The position numbers and the translations under genes are program-made. A stretch of DNA of 64,000 bases from an uncultured Anaeroplasmataceae bacterium (GTDB lineage: Bacteria; Bacillota_I; Bacilli_A; Acholeplasmatales; Anaeroplasmataceae), in the NCBI GenBank assembly GCA_948619685.1, contig CAPGOD010000002.1, forward strand, positions 1-64,000. The letters are read 5' to 3'. Under the pieces are notes generated by a model. The model saw only the letters and a list, made by a program, of their open reading frames with translations, was not told the DNA's origin and ran no database searches. Numbering within the stretch: position 1 is the stretch's first letter; each line of letters opens with the position of its first letter. Shown here in pieces: positions 8,151 to 58,943 of this stretch.

Positions 8151-8895
8151 CTAAATACCTCCACGCAAATACCTTCTTTACCAATTTCTTCATTAGACTG
8201 TCAAACAACACACTGATGACCATAATCATAATAATGGCCATAAATACCAAATCTGTCCTTCCTCTTGAAGACGACTGTTGGATAATATATCCTAGTCCAT
8301 ATTTCGCATTTATTGTTTCGGTTGCTGCTATATATGTCCATCCAATTCCATACATCATAATAAAACTATTCATTAAACTCGGAAGAATTGCTGGTATTTG
8401 TACTTTAGCGATTATCTGAAGCTTATTCATTCCTATTGTAAGTCCTGTATCAATAAGATCTGAATTAATTTCATCTAAGCACAGAATTACTGATGGCATC
8501 ATATACACAAATGTTGCAATAAACAGAAATACAATCTTCATAAGCTCATCAATTCCAAACCACATAATCAATAATGGATAAAATGCCGTAATGGGTATGT
8601 ATCTCATAATACTTATTACTGGACTTATAATATCGTTTGTTATTTTTGAGTTATACACCAGCAATGCTATTGGAAATGCTATCATCCCTGATAAGAATGT
8701 CGCTATTGTAATTCTTAAAAATGAATACTTTATTGCCATGAATAGCTGACCACTTTTCATCATTCCAATCAGATTCATAAATACTAATTTGGGATTGGGG
8801 ATGAATAGTGGATTGACATTTTTAGAACAGAGACTCCACACTAAGATTACGCTTAGTAATAATAGTAATCTTTTTGCAATTTTCTTAATTTTCAT
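8134..8895 (-). CDS. ABC transporter permease (SsuC/TauC-like)
   Basis: 253 aa, multiple hydrophobic helices, overlaps the ATPase gene start. Confidence 0.7.
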   Translation of the reverse strand: MKIKKIAKRLLLLLSVILVWSLCSKNVNPLFIPNPKLVFMNLIGMMKSGQLFMAIKYSFLRITIATFLSGMIAFPIALLVYNSKITNDIISPVISIMRYIPITAFYPLLIMWFGIDELMKIVFLFIATFVYMMPSVILCLDEINSDLIDTGLTIGMNKLQIIAKVQIPAILPSLMNSFIMMYGIGWTYIAATETINAKYGLGYIIQQSSSRGRTDLVFMAIIMIMVISVLFDSLMKKLVKKVFAWRYLDDCLE

Positions 8896-8969
8896 TCACC
8901 CTTTCTTACTTGCTGATTCTACACTTAGCTTGTGTATTATTTAGCTTTGAAATCTCGAATTTATTGTCT

Positions 8970-10151
8970 TTAACCATTGTGCTTCAATAGATATTCTCTC
9001 GACACATTTTTGAAGCTCTGCTGTCCATCAACACTTCGGTATACGAACCCCTCTCTTTTTACCTTTGGATTGATTTCACTATACCCATCAGCTTCCAGCT
9101 TCATTTCTTCCATAGTCTTAGGCAACACATATTCTGTATCAGTAATTGGCACATTCTTTAATCCATTCTGTTCGCAGAATTTAGCCATATCTACGGCTCC
9201 AAGACGTACACCGTCAACAATCAGATTGAATACAAATAACTCATTCTCTTTCAGCTTATATGGATTACCTTGAACTGATCCAACACCCTCTCCTTGGAGA
9301 ACCACTCTGTTATATCCATTCTCCATAGCAAACTTAGTCAAAATAATTTCAATGCCATACTTATCTGCCAGCTCCCAATAGATATTTGACTCATGATATG
9401 TTTCCTGATTTCTATCTGCCTGTCTTACATTTCTACTACAAACAATAAACTCAAACTTATTCTTCTTGATTCTGTCTACAGCAAATGTGCAGCTTGTTCC
9501 ATCTAATTTTTCTGTCTTAATCCACTTATTAGTACTTTCCAGATAAAACGGAGCATTCTCAATTCGTGTTTCGTCTGTCTTAACAATCCACTTGGGAAAC
9601 TCTTTCGGATTATCTTTCTTCTTGCCAAAGAACAGGAACATGATTTTTCTGCCAAGTTTATATCTCATAATCTTTCGCACAAATGGTCTACTAAACAGCT
9701 TCTTGTGTCTCTGAGCCATAGATTTATATTTTGCATCTGGATCTACGTTGTTGGACTTTCTCTTAACATCTTCTTCACAAGAATAAGTAATTTTAAGACT
9801 TTCAGTCACGTCCGATCCAATAGCATTATCACTCAACTCTGGAAATAATGAAATCGGGAGTGCAAGTCCCTGACTAATAACCTTAAATTTCCCTAGCTTC
9901 ATTGTTTTTACCTTATAATGCTTTGTTGCTAAGAAAGCAAATCTTTCATCAGATTCAGGACATTTACTATCAATTTCAATGTACACGGCTAAATCTCCTG
10001 GCTTAAACTCTTCTTTCTTTGCGATACAAACCCATCCAAGGACTCCAATAAGTTCAATATTATCTGCTCCATCAATCGGTCTTACCCACTCAATTTTTTC
10101 AATATGTGCCAATGCTCTATCTGCCATATTAAATTTCTCCTTTTCTCTCAA
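8970..10151 (-). CDS. ATP-dependent RNA ligase (Rnl5/DraRnl-like) with N-terminal tRNA-binding-type OB domain
   Basis: KxDG nucleotidyltransferase motif KLDGTS; N-terminal VRPIDGADNIELIGVLGWVCIAKKEEFKPGDLAVYIEID resembles myf/tRNA_bind OB fold. Confidence 0.65.
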   Translation of the reverse strand: MREKEKFNMADRALAHIEKIEWVRPIDGADNIELIGVLGWVCIAKKEEFKPGDLAVYIEIDSKCPESDERFAFLATKHYKVKTMKLGKFKVISQGLALPISLFPELSDNAIGSDVTESLKITYSCEEDVKRKSNNVDPDAKYKSMAQRHKKLFSRPFVRKIMRYKLGRKIMFLFFGKKKDNPKEFPKWIVKTDETRIENAPFYLESTNKWIKTEKLDGTSCTFAVDRIKKNKFEFIVCSRNVRQADRNQETYHESNIYWELADKYGIEIILTKFAMENGYNRVVLQGEGVGSVQGNPYKLKENELFVFNLIVDGVRLGAVDMAKFCEQNGLKNVPITDTEYVLPKTMEEMKLEADGYSEINPKVKREGFVYRSVDGQQSFKNVSREYLLKHNG

Positions 10152-25284: not shown

Positions 25285-26520
25285 TTACGCTGCATTTATA
25301 ACTATAGGGGTTAGAACACCCTCTATCCCATATCGCTCATTGAACGCATTTGGGAATACCTTCATCATAATTTGTAATGATCCGTTTACATCACTATTGA
25401 TAAGCAATCCCGAGTTACTTCTAAACAACCCTCTTTCTATCCGTCTTGACTTATCGTAATTCTGTTTAATAGTTTCTTCTCCATCTAAGAAACTTGTTCC
25501 TGAAGAATAACTCTCCTCAGTTTCAATATATTTAATTCCAACATTTTCACATTTATATTTGAGTTGCTGTAACAACATCTGATAAGGAATACTCACAAAC
25601 TTCTGATTGCTTTGTTTACCCATATCTATACTCTGTTTCCATTCCTTATTCTTGCCAACAACCAAAGTATCAATGTCATTTTTCACACACCACTTCACTA
25701 CACAAGCACTTGCATTGTGCATATAGTTCTTGATCCTCTGATATCTTTTAAATGTAATAGAATCCAGTTTCTTAGACCAGTCTTTTCCATGACGTATTTT
25801 CAATAAAGATTTTTCTTTCGCCAATCGTTTGTTATAGTATTGATTGATACTTTTGATTCCCTTGCCGTTAATAATAATTGGATTCAAACCGATATTATTT
25901 GTCATAGTTACAAGATTATCTACACCCAAATCAATACTTGCTATGCGATTGCTTTCTGTTTTTACATCTGGAACTTCTGTTTCATAGACAATTTCCATTA
26001 CATAACAGGAACCTTTTGGAATAAATCTGACTTGAATGATTCTGCCAAGGCAGCGACATTTCCATTCATAATCATTAAGTAATCTGTTCCTGATATAAAC
26101 CGTTCCTTTTTCATAGTCATAGACCAACTGATTATTGGGAATCATCCAAGGAAACCTACCGTCCTTTTTTAAATACTTTGGCAACTTAGGCATACCAAGA
26201 TATTTTGACGGATTATTCTTCCAGTCTTTTATTGCTCTGAAATAGGATTTCCAGTTTTTATCTAAAACTCTTAGAGTACAATTCGCTGGTTGACTGAATG
26301 TAAGTTTGTAATTTTCGTGTGTCTTAAATTCAAAATTCATTTTGTTATATGATATATATTCTCCGTTATTTATGAATTTCTGTCTTATTTCATAATTTGC
26401 TTCATTGTAAAGATTCTTAGAATGAAAACACTGTTGATCTATAACTTTGAATTTTGGATGATTCTTTCGTATGATTATTTGCTCACGCCTTTCTACTTTT
26501 ATTTTTTCACCTCCAATCTT
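25285..26520 (-). CDS. tnpB: TnpB-like (IS605 OrfB / RuvC-like) protein, solo, with degenerate RuvC-II and no zinc-finger cysteines
   Basis: RuvC-I is ASIDLGVDNLV. The position of the usual VIEDLN reads LVVGKNKEW. The usual YTSQ.C..CG...C..CG reads ESYSSGTS...RSNSG. The C-terminal block is INSDVNGSLQI. The frame stays open 58 codons upstream of the first ATG (KIKVERREQIIIRKNHPKF) back to a TAG, with a GGAGGTG RBS but only ATA/ATT as candidate starts. Confidence 0.55.
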   Translation of the reverse strand, partial: KIGGEKIKVERREQIIIRKNHPKFKVIDQQCFHSKNLYNEANYEIRQKFINNGEYISYNKMNFEFKTHENYKLTFSQPANCTLRVLDKNWKSYFRAIKDWKNNPSKYLGMPKLPKYLKKDGRFPWMIPNNQLVYDYEKGTVYIRNRLLNDYEWKCRCLGRIIQVRFIPKGSCYVMEIVYETEVPDVKTESNRIASIDLGVDNLVTMTNNIGLNPIIINGKGIKSINQYYNKRLAKEKSLLKIRHGKDWSKKLDSITFKRYQRIKNYMHNASACVVKWCVKNDIDTLVVGKNKEWKQSIDMGKQSNQKFVSIPYQMLLQQLKYKCENVGIKYIETEESYSSGTSFLDGEETIKQNYDKSRRIERGLFRSNSGLLINSDVNGSLQIMMKVFPNAFNERYGIEGVLTPIVINAA

Positions 26521-27314: not shown

Positions 27315-27548
27315 TCATTTCCTTTTAAGTTTCTTATATAAATTATCCCAAAATATCGTCCATACTGCACACCAACAAACGAATAATCCCACATTAATAT
27401 CTGCGGTTTCCCATTTATTAATATAATAGATTACGATAAATGTTATGATGAAAATTAATCGAATTAAGTCTCTCAATTTATTACAATATCCAGTATATAA
27501 AGCAGGTGTTCCAGCTAATATAAATGAAAACAAAATATATTCCATCAT
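27315..27548 (-). CDS. small membrane protein
   Basis: 77 aa, two hydrophobic helices. Confidence 0.35.
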   Translation of the reverse strand: MMEYILFSFILAGTPALYTGYCNKLRDLIRLIFIITFIVIYYINKWETADINVGLFVCWCAVWTIFWDNLYKKLKRK

Positions 27549-28588
27549 TTTTCTCCTATAAATAATTTTTCTATATATCTATCCATCTCATATCCCAATT
27601 TCACACAATTGCCATGTGATATATGATTTTTCCAAGCATTGTAACTCTCATAAAATTTCTCTTTGCTAAGTTTTCCACACCTCACTAATCCAACCATTTT
27701 CTTAAATTTCTTTTTAGCGGCACGTTTATTTTCGTTCTTCAGCTTTCGGATTACTTTACCACCTGAAGTCACATATGTATGAAAACCACAAAATTTGATT
27801 CCATTTTTAAAAGGAATGACCTGAGTCTTACTGTTTAATTCAAGACCTAATGAATACACAAACTCATAAATAGCTGCTAAACACCATTTCGCATATTCTT
27901 TATTTGGCACTATCAAATAAAAATCATCCATATATCTACCATAGTATTTGACGCCGAGTTCACCAGTAATAAAGTGATCCAAACCTGATAAATATAGAAG
28001 TGCGAATACCTGACTGATCTGATTACCTAAAGGAAGTCCTAATCCCTCTGTACTATTAATAAACTTCTCACATAACCAATATACATCCTTATCTTCTATA
28101 AAATAACCCACAATAGCTTTCAAAATATTATGGTCAATATTATAAAAGAATTTACTTATATCAGCTTTTACAATCCAACAATCATATCCATATTTTTGAT
28201 ATGCAAGAAACATTTGCGCTCTCAAACAATCCAAACCATACAGTGTACCTTTACTAATCTGGCCAGCATAATTCGTTTGAATAAATTCTTTATTAAATTT
28301 TGGAATCAATACATTATCACACAAACTATGCTGAATAATCTTATCTACAAATGAACACGACTTAATGACCCTTTCTTTTGGTTCATATATTGTAAATTCA
28401 TTATATTTAGATACTTGATATGTCTTTGTTTCTAATCTTCTTTTTATTTGGTGAATGCCATCAAGAGCAACTACTTGAAACTTCTGGCTACTTTTTGAGA
28501 ATCCTTTACTTGACTTAGATTTTAAGTATGCTTGATACAAATTGCCGAAATCTATAATTTTTCCAAAATCTGTTTTATCTTCTATCAT
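27545..28588 (-). CDS. diversity-generating retroelement reverse transcriptase
   Basis: RT motifs are IVKADISKFFYNIDH, LPLGNQISQVFALLYL and YGRYMDDF (YxDD). LPLGNQISQVFALLYL has SQ instead of SP in motif 4, as in DGR RTs. Size is 347 aa. TR, avd and a VR-bearing target lie adjacent. Confidence 0.8.
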   Translation of the reverse strand: MIEDKTDFGKIIDFGNLYQAYLKSKSSKGFSKSSQKFQVVALDGIHQIKRRLETKTYQVSKYNEFTIYEPKERVIKSCSFVDKIIQHSLCDNVLIPKFNKEFIQTNYAGQISKGTLYGLDCLRAQMFLAYQKYGYDCWIVKADISKFFYNIDHNILKAIVGYFIEDKDVYWLCEKFINSTEGLGLPLGNQISQVFALLYLSGLDHFITGELGVKYYGRYMDDFYLIVPNKEYAKWCLAAIYEFVYSLGLELNSKTQVIPFKNGIKFCGFHTYVTSGGKVIRKLKNENKRAAKKKFKKMVGLVRCGKLSKEKFYESYNAWKNHISHGNCVKLGYEMDRYIEKLFIGEK

Positions 28589-28707
28589 AATATTTTGTTC
28601 CTTTGTATTTATCCTGGCATTTTTGATTCAGGAAAGGTTGCCTATTCTTTTGAAATCGGGACTCTAATTTCAGTGTTTCTCTTACTCTCTTTCGTCTTCC
28701 GATCCAG

Positions 28708-28790
28708 AACGGGCGGACACCTTTGTCATAGTCACAGTGGTTGTAGTTCACGTTGCCATCAGAGTTGACATACTGAACATAGTGGCCATA
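28708..28790 (-). repeat. DGR template repeat (TR)
   Basis: ~83 bp nearly identical to 29327-29409. All ~20 mismatches fall at plus-strand T, which is coding-strand A. The track ORF 28575-28793 is just this repeat read through. Confidence 0.7.
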
Positions 28791-28807
28791 CAATAGACAA
28801 CCTATAA

Positions 28808-29176
28808 TTATCTTTCTTTATCTTTTGAACGCCATGCAATACTCATGTATTTCACATCATTTATTTGTTTCTGCCAATATCCAACTGTATCACTTCCAAT
28901 CAAATTAAGTTTCATAGAAAGTTCCACATAACAGGATAGTTTATCACAGCACGAAATTGCTTTTGTTTGCAACTCTTGGCGTTCCGATTTTGAAGTATCC
29001 AATTTCAGCCTATTTGCATCAAGTAAATATTCATATATATCCATACAGCGACTTTGGATACGTTTTACCAATGTCAAATGCTTAACTGGATACCTCTTTC
29101 GATTTGATGTAATTGTCATAGTATATTCCATAAGATTTATTGCTTTTACAATAACATCCAGTTTCGCTTCGCTCAC
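28808..29176 (-). CDS. avd: DGR accessory variability determinant (Avd-like four-helix-bundle protein)
   Basis: 122-aa basic helical protein located between target and TR, as in mtd-avd-TR-brt cassettes. Confidence 0.55.
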   Translation of the reverse strand: MSEAKLDVIVKAINLMEYTMTITSNRKRYPVKHLTLVKRIQSRCMDIYEYLLDANRLKLDTSKSERQELQTKAISCCDKLSCYVELSMKLNLIGSDTVGYWQKQINDVKYMSIAWRSKDKER

Positions 29177-29183
29177 TGGTTCC

Positions 29184-29326
29184 TCCGCTCCTTTCAGTCG
29201 CTCACCGGCAAGTCACGGCAAGGGCTTACGCCCTCGCCTGTTCCCTGGCCAACCCTCCATGTTCCGCAAGATAAAAAGATTTAAGATTATCCAATCTTTC
29301 GCTACGCTCAAGATTGAAGGATGAAA
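29184..29326 (-). repeat. GC-rich conserved 3' element downstream of DGR target stop codon (copy 1)
   Basis: >95% identical to 58175-58321; contains GCGAGGGC-GTAA-GCCCTTGC hairpin. Confidence 0.55.
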
Positions 29327-30075
29327 AACGGGCGGACACCCCCGTCACAGTCACAGAGGTTGCAGTCCACGCGGCCACCAGAGCCGACACACTGAACACA
29401 GCGGCCATCTCCTCTTTTGGGTGTCTGATTAGGTGTAGCAAGCCAATACCAGCTATCAATCAACGGAATACTTTCCCCAAATTTCATAAGCAACTGGATA
29501 TTAGGAATTGCAAGAATGTCTCCTTCAACTGTACCATAATCCTTAAGTCCATCCATAGATGTTAAATCGATTGAAATAGGAACAAGCCTATCACCAAATT
29601 CTTCCTTTAATCCAGCAACCAAATCACTGTTAACAAGCTCATCGCGCACATAAGACTCTGCATAATTATTTGTTTTACCAAACTCTGATTTTTTTAGAAT
29701 CCCATTCATAAAGTAATATGTACATTCTCCGTCCTGTACACTTGTCCAATAATAGCCACAAATAAATTTTAAATTCTTCTTCCACTCTTCCATATACTTT
29801 TCAACTACATCTCTAAAATCTTGTTCATACCTTTCTGGATCTTTTTCATACCAATCAGGTACAATGTCCTGATCGACCTTATATCTCCAGTTTTTTACAT
29901 CTGTCATTTTATCACCATTTTGCGGAATCAATTCTGCTCTTACAAATGTTTTTGTTGCATTCATACGATTATCTTCAATACCAAGACTATCCAATAAATC
30001 TGAATGACTTTCATTTCCTTCTGGCGCTAAGACCACTCTGTTCTTCAAAATAACTCCACTCTTAAAATTACACAT
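29308..30075 (-). CDS. DGR target protein 1 (C-terminal variable region)
   Basis: 255 aa; VR ends 5 codons before stop; C-terminus paralogous to 58293-58943. Confidence 0.65.
   Translation of the reverse strand: MCNFKSGVILKNRVVLAPEGNESHSDLLDSLGIEDNRMNATKTFVRAELIPQNGDKMTDVKNWRYKVDQDIVPDWYEKDPERYEQDFRDVVEKYMEEWKKNLKFICGYYWTSVQDGECTYYFMNGILKKSEFGKTNNYAESYVRDELVNSDLVAGLKEEFGDRLVPISIDLTSMDGLKDYGTVEGDILAIPNIQLLMKFGESIPLIDSWYWLATPNQTPKRGDGRCVQCVGSGGRVDCNLCDCDGGVRPFFILQS
29327..29409 (-). repeat. DGR variable repeat VR1 (C-terminal codons of target 1)
   Basis: Aligned to TR with substitutions only at coding-strand A positions; encodes ...RCVQCVGSGGRVDCNLCDCDGGVRP. Confidence 0.7.
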
Positions 30076-58166: not shown

Positions 58167-58174
58167 TTTATTTT

Positions 58175-58321
58175 CCGCTCCTTTCAGTCGCTCACCGACA
58201 AGTCACGGCAAGGGCTTACGCCCTCGCCTGTTCCCTGGCTAACCCTCCATGTTCCGCAAGATACAAAGATTTAAGAAACTCTTTCGCTACGCTCAAGATT
58301 GAAGGATGAAAAACGGACGCA
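58175..58321 (-). repeat. GC-rich conserved 3' element downstream of DGR target stop codon (copy 2)
   Basis: >95% identical to 29184-29326. Confidence 0.55.
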
Positions 58322-58943
58322 CGCCCCCGGAAAAGTCACACCTATTGTAATTCACGTAGCCACCAGAGAAGACGCACTGAACATAGCGGGCACTCCATCC
58401 TGATAATGTCGAATCTGGAGTTACAAGCCACCACCAGCAATCCAGATTTGCACCAATTATTTTTCTATACTTTCTATATTGGTCGATAGTCAAAATGCTT
58501 ACTTTGTCTATGCTTGTCCCATAGTCATCCAAACCATCCAACGACATTAAATCGACAGTATGCTCAACAATCCTATCCTTGCCAAATGTATTTTCAATTT
58601 CCCCTAAATATGTTCCATTCAGAAATCCTCTCAGACTACTTGTTTTCCAGTTGTTATCGGAGCCAAACTCCATATCATCTTCTAATACCTCTTTTCTGAT
58701 AACCGCTGTACGATTTCCATCAAGCTGTTCTAAGACTATGTATTCGACATTATTAACCTCAAATATCTCCCCTTGACTTAATGATAGTAAATTAATATCC
58801 TCTTTTCTTTCTATAACAATCTGGATGTTCTCATCAACATTGTTGATAGTTACATTTAAATCCTTCTCTACTTTATTGACTACATTTATTTTCTTACACA
58901 TATTATTTTCCTCCACATCTTTTTCTAAAAAGGTACATTTCAT
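58293..58943 (-). CDS. DGR target protein 2 (paralog of 29308-30075, remote from RT)
   Basis: C-terminal ~90 aa paralogous to target 1; identical GGVRPFFILQS* ending. Confidence 0.6.
   Translation of the reverse strand: MKCTFLEKDVEENNMCKKINVVNKVEKDLNVTINNVDENIQIVIERKEDINLLSLSQGEIFEVNNVEYIVLEQLDGNRTAVIRKEVLEDDMEFGSDNNWKTSSLRGFLNGTYLGEIENTFGKDRIVEHTVDLMSLDGLDDYGTSIDKVSILTIDQYRKYRKIIGANLDCWWWLVTPDSTLSGWSARYVQCVFSGGYVNYNRCDFSGGVRPFFILQS
58322..58395 (-). repeat. diverged DGR variable repeat VR2 (remote target)
   Basis: Aligns to TR over ~80 bp with ~12 mismatches at T positions and ~10 at other positions; encodes ...RYVQCVFSGGYVNYNRCDFSGGVRP. Confidence 0.55.

Follow-up and report, generated by a model that had tools for sequence, protein, structure and literature searches.

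Organization of the cassette

The window analyzed here comprises the first 64,000 nucleotides of contig CAPGOD010000002.1 (assembly GCA_948619685.1, deposited as an uncultured Anaeroplasmataceae bacterium), and its central part carries what we describe as a diversity-generating retroelement (DGR). On the minus strand, the cassette runs in the order target gene 1, avd, template repeat (TR) and reverse transcriptase (RT), with all open reading frames (ORFs) intact and in frame. An earlier note on this DNA had proposed a complete target-avd-TR-RT element, and the canonical layout is confirmed. The features of the cassette, all on the minus strand, are listed below in transcriptional order; the initiation of mutagenic homing elements next to the variable repeat (VR) and the TR are abbreviated IMH and IMH*, respectively.

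29308–30075, minus: target gene 1, 255 aa, acidic (pI 4.7), with a C-terminal half similar to DUF6273 and phrog_9958
29327–29408, minus: VR1, 28 codons (223–250) that are the last of the 255-aa target 1
29267–29326, minus: VR-specific 3′ flank, IMH-like, consisting of TTTCATCCTTCAATCTT, the stop codon, a 27-nt insertion and ATCTT-AA-ATCTT-TTT-ATCTT
29267–29287, minus: the conserved ATCTT-AA-ATCTT-TTT-ATCTT repeats of this flank
29217–29238, minus: GC-rich hairpin GGCGAGGGC-GTAA-GCCCTTGCC, nine pairs including one G·T, 88 nt past the end of VR1
29184–29203, minus: conserved ribosome-binding block GCGACTGAAAGGAGC before avd
28808–29176, minus: avd, 122 aa, GTG start, pI 9.3, between target 1 and the TR
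28708–28789, minus: TR, 82 nt, aligning to VR1 without gaps
28689–28707, minus: TR-specific 3′ flank, IMH*-like, CTGGATCGGAAGACGAAAG, conserved in relatives
28589–28707, minus: TR flank and putative DGR RNA spacer, 119 nt, with conserved stems that include 28699–28705 paired with 28654–28660
27545–28588, minus: DGR-type RT, 347 aa, with LPLGNQISQ and YMDD (PF00078, E 4e-14)

A GC-rich spacer of 131 nt separates the target 1 ORF from the avd ORF. The TR lies outside the target ORF and ends 119 nt before the RT start. It appears to be non-coding; the 72-aa ORF with a TTG start that overlaps it is merely the TR read in the VR frame.

Differences between TR and VR1 are confined to adenines

The TR and VR1 are offset by 619 nt, and their coding-strand alignment contains 15 mismatches, each of which falls on a TR adenine (a T on the plus strand). 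Thirteen of these are A>G, one is A>C and one is A>T, and in total 15 of the 22 TR adenines are changed in VR1. The probability that 15 of 15 mismatches would land on adenines by chance is 1.7e-11 (hypergeometric), so the adenine-only pattern reported in the earlier note holds. The repeat pair, which was also recovered independently by a general repeat search, stands as well, with its true ends at 28789 and 29408; the previous ends at 28790 and 29409 had taken in one extra boundary position, a T/G mismatch on the coding strand.

In the VR frame, the TR adenines occupy codon position 2 in 16 cases, position 1 in five and position 3 in one. Their randomization involves ~14 codons and could encode about 10^12 peptides. 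The changes had been described as lying mostly in AAC codons, which is overstated: the TR contains four such codons, and they hold just five of the 15 substitutions, the others being in TAT/TAC, CAC, GAT and AAA codons. The mutagenized stretch of the TR measures 62 nt and the 3′ GC-rich block common to TR and VR 14 nt; the published figures are ~30–100 bp for the mutagenized range and 20–40 bp for the shared block (Wu et al. 2018, PMC5758913). The TR is therefore short, as had been remarked, but not exceptional, since its mutagenized part is within the published range. The same TR sequence is found, without a single change, in five related loci (L086, L088, L089, L091 and L108; related loci carry L numbers throughout).

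The pattern extends beyond this cassette. In 30 clean, independent TR/VR pairs, substitutions affect 449 of the 697 template adenines, with G as the new base in 73%, T in 17% and C in 10%, and non-adenine changes number zero. The A>G excess agrees with the misincorporation by Bordetella Brt in vivo in E. coli, which is dominated by cytosine (PMC12875486). These data bear on the idea that the repeat arose when a gene end was duplicated in the ordinary way and then diverged normally, independently of the RT. Two paralogs that resemble each other at the 3′ end and in the region downstream are indeed present in the window, as described below, but the base-specific pattern of the 15 differences in the resident pair and of the 30 other pairs already refutes a duplication of this kind, and the TR copy is located outside annotated genes, immediately in front of a Brt-like RT. 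We assign this explanation practically no weight.

The reverse transcriptase and its accessory protein

The RT ORF holds both LPLGNQISQ and YMDD, in line with the DGR-type motif 4 and YMDD read in it before. In a comparison to solved structures, the first match was 8ub7_A (E 7e-33), followed by group II RTs (1e-15) and retron-type RTs (6e-14). The 8ub7_A chain, which has 328 aa and a YMDD at 213–216, is Bordetella Brt, as identified by its length and by the position of this motif given by Guo et al. (PMC3240598). The RT thus sides with Brt, by 18 orders of magnitude in E-value, and not with the group II or retron enzymes that the earlier note had named as the alternative. Judged by its nearest solved relative, by its [LIV]GxxxSQ motif, which takes the place of the group II and retron version, and by its YxDD motif, the protein is best classed as a DGR RT.

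An origin of the RT in a group II intron, a retron or a defense-type (DRT/Abi) system would fit the matches to generic profiles, namely TIGR04416 (group II, E 8e-30), Drt3a (E 4e-16) and the generic RT models of PADLOC, which matched the RT but neither Avd nor the targets. An Abi_alpha gene is also present near the RT in relatives. The NCBIfam scores, however, are far under their curated cut-offs (104 of 300 bits for TIGR04416, 59 of 200 for Drt3a and 33 of 235 for the retron model NF038233), and an Rfam scan of the whole window found no family and hence no group II or retron RNA. As Brt is the best solved relative, and the TR, VR and Avd are all there, we consider such an origin exceedingly improbable. 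A tRNA scan of the window was also empty, and promoter and terminator scans of it stayed at background level.

The protein encoded between target 1 and the TR matches the NCBIfam model NF033474 (DivGenRetAVD) with an E-value of 9e-7. When it was scanned together with 12 orthologs, nine of the 13 proteins matched PF05635 (23S_rRNA_IVP) and eight matched PF22296 (bAvd) at E ≤ 1, with best E-values of 5e-6 and 3e-5, respectively; the window's own protein matched neither family. Avd proteins are very poorly conserved and have a pI of 9.5 ± 0.7, which the pI of 9.3 fits. The similarity is weak but consistent and amounts to homology at a significant E-value, below the equivalog level, so that this gene, previously called Avd-like, can be taken as a probable avd.

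A further ORF follows the RT on the minus strand (27315–27548). It encodes a hydrophobic protein of 77 aa, and its start overlaps the RT stop (ATGA). A 76-aa gene is located after the RT in all six loci with an identical RT, and the 77-aa ORF could be a conserved passenger of the cassette.

Repeat flanks, hairpin and spacer RNA

The flanks of VR and TR part immediately after ...CCGTT. Beyond the common GGTGTCCGCCCGTT, the VR runs on as TTTCATCCTTCAATCTT and the TR as CTGGATCGGAAGACG, and each continuation is conserved in relatives. The VR downstream flank with its three ATCTT repeats is near-invariant in relatives down to 60% RT identity. As far as can be read from the sequence, these flanks have the IMH/IMH* arrangement.

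The GC-rich hairpin downstream of VR1 was located by a search that tolerates wobble pairs, a perfect-stem search being too strict. A hairpin is present at the homologous place in relatives L001–L034, about 60–89 nt from the VR, with stems that differ in sequence (GGAATGC/GCATTCC, GAACAATGC/GCGTTGTTC and GGCTGC/GCAGCC). That the stems differ and yet pair indicates that pairing has been kept by compensatory changes. In more distant relatives, at 60% RT identity, no obvious GC hairpin was seen. Retrohoming in the Bordetella system needs a GC-rich hairpin with a stem of 7–10 bp and a 4-nt GRNA loop that is located 4–34 bp from the VR (Guo et al. 2011, PMC3240598). The hairpin of the window resembles this target-site element, although it departs from the published consensus.

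The spacer between the TR and the RT was folded with RNAalifold on 18 relatives, which gave 17 pairs, 11 of them changed on both sides. Such a conserved fold would be expected for a DGR RNA spacer.

The diversified domain

Target 1 matches phrog_9958 over residues 129–255 (E 3e-23) and, faintly, DUF6273 over residues 208–255; its homolog P0007 scores above the Pfam cut-off for this domain. No family was assigned to the N-terminal ~130 aa. DUF6273 has been described as a C-type-lectin-like domain of small DGR targets from gut phages (PMC10743442, PMC11792537, bioRxiv 10.1101/2024.10.15.618418), so that the diversified product, earlier held to be unknown, has in its C-terminal half a published DGR target domain. 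The AlphaFold2 model of target 1 has a predicted local distance difference test score (pLDDT) of 56, and of <50 in the C-terminal half, which is too low for a fold search. A Foldseek search of BFVD with the model of the second target described below returned nothing significant, and profile searches of both targets against PDB sequences gave no meaningful match. By domain family as published, the targets are probably C-type-lectin-like.

A second, remote target

Scanning the window with the TR and scoring only non-adenine positions revealed a second variable repeat, VR2, in a gene ~29 kb from the TR.

58293–58943, minus: target gene 2, 216 aa, DUF6273, paralog of target 1
58312–58393, minus: VR2, with 13 adenine and 10 non-adenine differences to the resident TR
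58169–58311, minus: copy of the VR-downstream region with the IMH-like flank, ATCTT repeats, hairpin and ribosome-binding block

Target 2 is a bona fide DUF6273 protein according to Pfam and is 46% identical to target 1 over 127 aa. The regions downstream of the two VRs (58169–58311 and 29179–29326, roughly 145 nt) are about 97% identical and differ by five substitutions and one 5-nt indel. In the target 2 copy, the insertion is 22 nt long (27 nt at VR1) and the first ATCTT has become TTCTT, whereas the hairpin (58207–58228) is identical. The disparity between 97% identity in the downstream regions and 46% protein identity in the genes points to either recent gene conversion or strong constraint. 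The 22–27-nt insertion (GAGCGTAGCGAAAGA...) is present in both copies and lacking from the VR1 loci of relatives; it was otherwise seen at the target 2 locus of L081.

In four loci where target 2 is in its native context (L107, L109, L110 and L111), VR2 differs from the window's TR by 6–19 adenine changes and 0–1 non-adenine mismatches. Near-identical orthologs of target 2 carry very different, hypervariable VR2 sequences. Because VR2 of these loci matches the TR, target 2 truly counts among the targets of this DGR lineage, as a remote one. Other phage DGRs, too, have targets that are not adjacent but lie within 50 kb (Wu et al., PMC5758913). L085 had also been considered as proof of a TR-matched VR2 and was dropped in favor of these four loci, as its contig, in which target 2 is joined to avd, is possibly chimeric or rearranged. 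A look-up of P0259 for a TR and VR2 on one contig yielded contig-end fragments only.

The VR2 of the window itself is out of register with the TR, which implies that the resident TR has not rewritten it since the present VR2 sequence was acquired. The divergent block is limited to the VR, and the flanks match those of relatives. A second TR able to template VR2 was found neither in the window nor among 80 related loci. Exact-pattern scans for such a template gave no matches in IMG/VR, JGI metagenomes or GTDB genomes, an absence that is weak evidence since the patterns presuppose which positions are adenines.

Two origins of the present VR2 can be weighed. The one that we favor, and consider somewhat probable, is that the allele was imported by ordinary recombination from a related phage with another TR, or that the resident TR was replaced after the last writing of VR2. 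These phages are mosaic, and the sequence upstream of 30126 is wholly different between genomes with an identical RT; the insertion in this lineage's VR1 downstream region, otherwise a property of target 2 loci, indicates exchange between the two loci; and the allele is stable in at least 23 contigs. On the other hand, identical flanks prevent the recombination tract from being delimited, and a donor allele was not found in the IMG/VR, JGI metagenome and GTDB scans. The second, rather unlikely origin involves another DGR, related to this one and present in the same cell, whose TR was the last to write VR2, in trans. Related phages have the IMH-like flank in common, divergence stops at the VR borders, avd-TR-brt is known to act in trans (PMC5758913), and the TR of L001–L006, which have the same VR flank TTTCATCCTTCAATCTT, finishes at its 3′ side with the very 14 nt (GGCGTGCGTCCGTT) that close VR2. 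No sampled TR, however, fits VR2 over its full length, and none turned up in the pattern scans. Recombination import or TR replacement is thus preferred over writing in trans.

Under the favored origin, the mismatched 3′ GC block of VR2 may hinder homing now. The more specific proposal that VR2 was written by the TR of a foreign DGR through cross-talk in one cell, and that the three mismatches in its 3′ GC block now shield it from the resident TR, is more doubtful still than writing in trans as such. If it were true, sharing of the IMH-like flank would open target sites to foreign templates, and a VR might end up locked.

Related loci display other arrangements of the second target. In L108 (1501–3458) and L085 (421–1227), avd-TR-RT comes directly after target 2; either 29 kb between the ~145-nt repeats have really been deleted, or the assembly has jumped from one repeat to the other. 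L081 (3001–3759), which is on the same contig as L003 in a 129-kb relative, carries a remote target 2 homolog with a 1-nt deletion at the VR end that extends the ORF to 252 aa. Its VR is mismatched to the TR of its own genome, and the gene, identical in 19 contigs, represents a decayed remote target.

Natural variation at the variable repeats

In L086 and L088, the RT and TR are identical to those of the window, and VR1 differs at 13 positions, all of them TR adenines. The other 2,740 nt of the cassette contain just nine differences, which corresponds to a roughly 48-fold excess in the VR. The identical RT protein was found on contigs from several studies. Target 1 has 2140 homologs in all. 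Among the best 120 of these, an entropy of 2.1–3.1 bits is reached solely at codons with TR adenines (231, 233, 235, 237, 239, 240 and 242–245), whereas the interleaved codons without A have an entropy of about zero. The same holds for 120 homologs of target 2, in which the entropy has peaks at no codons other than those with adenines, and codons lacking A do not vary. Both VRs are thus diversified at adenine sites in this lineage. In IMG/VR, the RT has 546 relatives, and the contigs that carry them reach 216 kb; L001–L042 have the layout of the window, with 82–95-nt repeats and mismatches almost all at adenines. Judging from this natural variation, the DGR has apparently been active recently.

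The same data can be set against the view that the element is a fossil, a DGR that once worked and is now inactive, with the TR/VR pattern as its leftover. This view draws on the VR1 and VR2 alleles that recur identically over many contigs of one study, on the VR2 that is not matched to the TR, on the existence of decayed relatives (L087, in which avd was apparently lost via VR × TR recombination, and L081 with its frameshifted VR) and on the fact that Wu et al. (PMC5758913) discarded over half of the candidate DGRs as defective. Against it, (i) the RT, avd, TR and target 1 are all intact and in frame, (ii) VR1 has no non-adenine mismatch, and (iii) the same RT protein and an identical TR are accompanied by a different VR1, with the roughly 48-fold excess of differences in the VR. 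We therefore regard a fossil as quite improbable.

Some observations weigh against a complete and working DGR. The match of Avd to DivGenRetAVD, at 29 bits, is under the curated cut-off of 80, and a profile search with Avd against PDB sequences found no match to a solved Avd. The hairpin is 88 nt from the VR compared to the published 4–34 bp, and its GTAA loop does not fit GRNA. The VR2 of the window carries its 10 non-adenine mismatches to the TR. In one mouse study, the exact VR1 allele is unchanged in 16 contigs and the VR2 allele in at least 23, so consensus sequences do not turn over quickly. Finally, the evidence for retrohoming in the DGR of the window is a proxy, namely strain differences at VR1 and VR2. 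Taking all this together, we put the probability that the element is a complete DGR of canonical layout, with two targets, on a large (about 100–215 kb) phage of mouse-gut Firmicutes at about 0.93.

One relative shows what recombination between the repeats may do. L087, which has an identical RT, contains a single repeat at the TR position (8879–8960), the 5′ half of which has VR-type A>G changes while the 3′ half is pure TR. The target ORF (8212–9093) is fused (293 aa), and avd is gone. This looks like homologous recombination between VR and TR that deleted avd.

Proposed mechanism

Combining these findings, we propose that the element would operate as follows, with the enzymology taken by analogy from the Bordetella system. 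The avd-TR-RT unit would be transcribed, and the RT together with Avd would copy the TR-spacer RNA into cDNA, misincorporating nucleotides opposite template adenines. The cDNA would then replace the 82-nt VR at the 3′ end of a target gene. The VR-specific flank and the hairpin downstream of it are presumably what marks the target for recognition. If the targets have a binding function, as we infer, diversity would fall on their ligand-binding face, at ~14 codons and with roughly 10^12 possible peptides.

Genomic context

The window has a GC content of 33%, and the ORFs examined, namely all 22 with a length of ≥250 aa and those in the neighborhood of the two targets, are on the minus strand. 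It is an accessory part of a large phage, with genes for an RNA ligase, a CCA-adding enzyme, RlaP, an HNH protein, a GmrSD-like protein, an integrase and a serine recombinase. Of the 14 window ORFs scanned against profile libraries, not one matched a structural gene, and neither the cassette nor 25 kb of the window had a megablast match among GenBank phages. Homologs are labeled as coming from mouse-gut Lachnospiraceae and from a Coprobacillus metagenome-assembled genome.

About 1.2 kb downstream of the DGR, a 351-aa ORF (25285–26340, minus) is an IS605 OrfB/TnpB (Cas12f-like TNB) by synteny and by equal length with L089 and L091. It is absent at the same place in L086 and L088, which have the identical RT, and is thus an insertion polymorphism. 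An 814-aa ORF (16712–19156, minus) combines a shoulder domain of the Major Vault Protein (E 8e-22) with Vault_3 repeat domains, which is unusual for a phage genome. The region 8970–14594 (minus) is an RNA-repair-like cluster consisting of the RNA ligase, the CCA-adding/PolyA_pol+HD enzyme, the RlaP nucleotidyltransferase and an HNH/NUMOD endonuclease; relatives additionally carry Thg1.

Comparison with known systems

The DGR of the window is not unusual, as its target class has already been described and its family is abundant in public viromes, and the picture of how DGRs work is unchanged by our findings. Its value is that of a clean, annotated example in which the TR, IMH-like flank, hairpin and spacer RNA are located, each with comparative support. 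The RT family is less than 50% identical to any GenBank phage RT and widespread in large gut phages. Of specialist interest is the long (about 145 nt) putative recognition region with conserved ATCTT repeats and a hairpin 60–90 nt from the VR, which is duplicated nearly exactly at the remote target. VR2 is furthermore a natural example of a VR that looks competent and yet is out of register with its TR, whereas orthologs a few mutations away are in register, which bears on the limits of homing at remote sites.

A more distant branch of the family (L043–L080, e.g. L047:2689–3889) consists of ~55-kb phages with a 60% identical RT and two tandem VR genes before avd. Both VRs match one 65–80-nt TR and are followed by a conserved ATCTTTG(T/A)ATC motif, without a GC-rich hairpin.

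The BPP-1 element (mtd-avd-TR-brt) has the same gene order, adenine-only differences, the distinction of IMH and IMH* and a GC-rich hairpin downstream of the VR, and its Brt, the best solved relative of the window RT, shares with it YMDD and a motif of the [LIV]GxxxSQ type. The two systems differ in that identity to the window RT is low, the targets are DUF6273 proteins of 216–255 aa as opposed to the 381-aa Mtd trimer, the window TR has 82 nt with four AAC codons, the hairpin is 88 nt away with a GTAA loop, and a second target is located at a distance of 29 kb.

The nearest GenBank phage RTs belong to the human-gut phages nd12 and nd4 (47.5% and 39.7% identity, respectively; Baykov et al. 2023, PMC10743442). 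Their 'tgt2' proteins are small and DUF6273-only, have a C-terminal VR and were modeled by those authors as C-type-lectin-like; target 2 shares 34% identity with them. There, as here, two VRs are served by a single TR. These phages, however, have genomes of 33–46 kb and carry both a tentaclin with an N-terminal VR and tgt2 inside the cassette, whereas the window has two tgt2-like paralogs, one of which is remote, in a genome of >100 kb.

The Faecalibacterium phages Toutatis, Brigit and Lelie (PMC11792537; bioRxiv 10.1101/2024.10.15.618418) also have DUF6273 targets with the VR at the C-terminus of the domain, and in Toutatisvirus a second VR gene is 17.5 kb from the TR. The RT identity to the window is about 35% (35.5% for Toutatis). 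These phages differ in host (Faecalibacterium as opposed to mouse-gut bacteria labeled Lachnospiraceae or Coprobacillus) and in their smaller genomes, and one target of Toutatis bears Ig-like domains.

The Treponema denticola TvpA and Legionella LdtA DGRs, by comparison, are chromosomal and have up to seven targets, some of them >100 kb off, whereas the element of the window is phage-borne and has both targets within 30 kb, in agreement with the observation that targets stay within 50 kb in phage-associated DGRs (Wu et al., PMC5758913).

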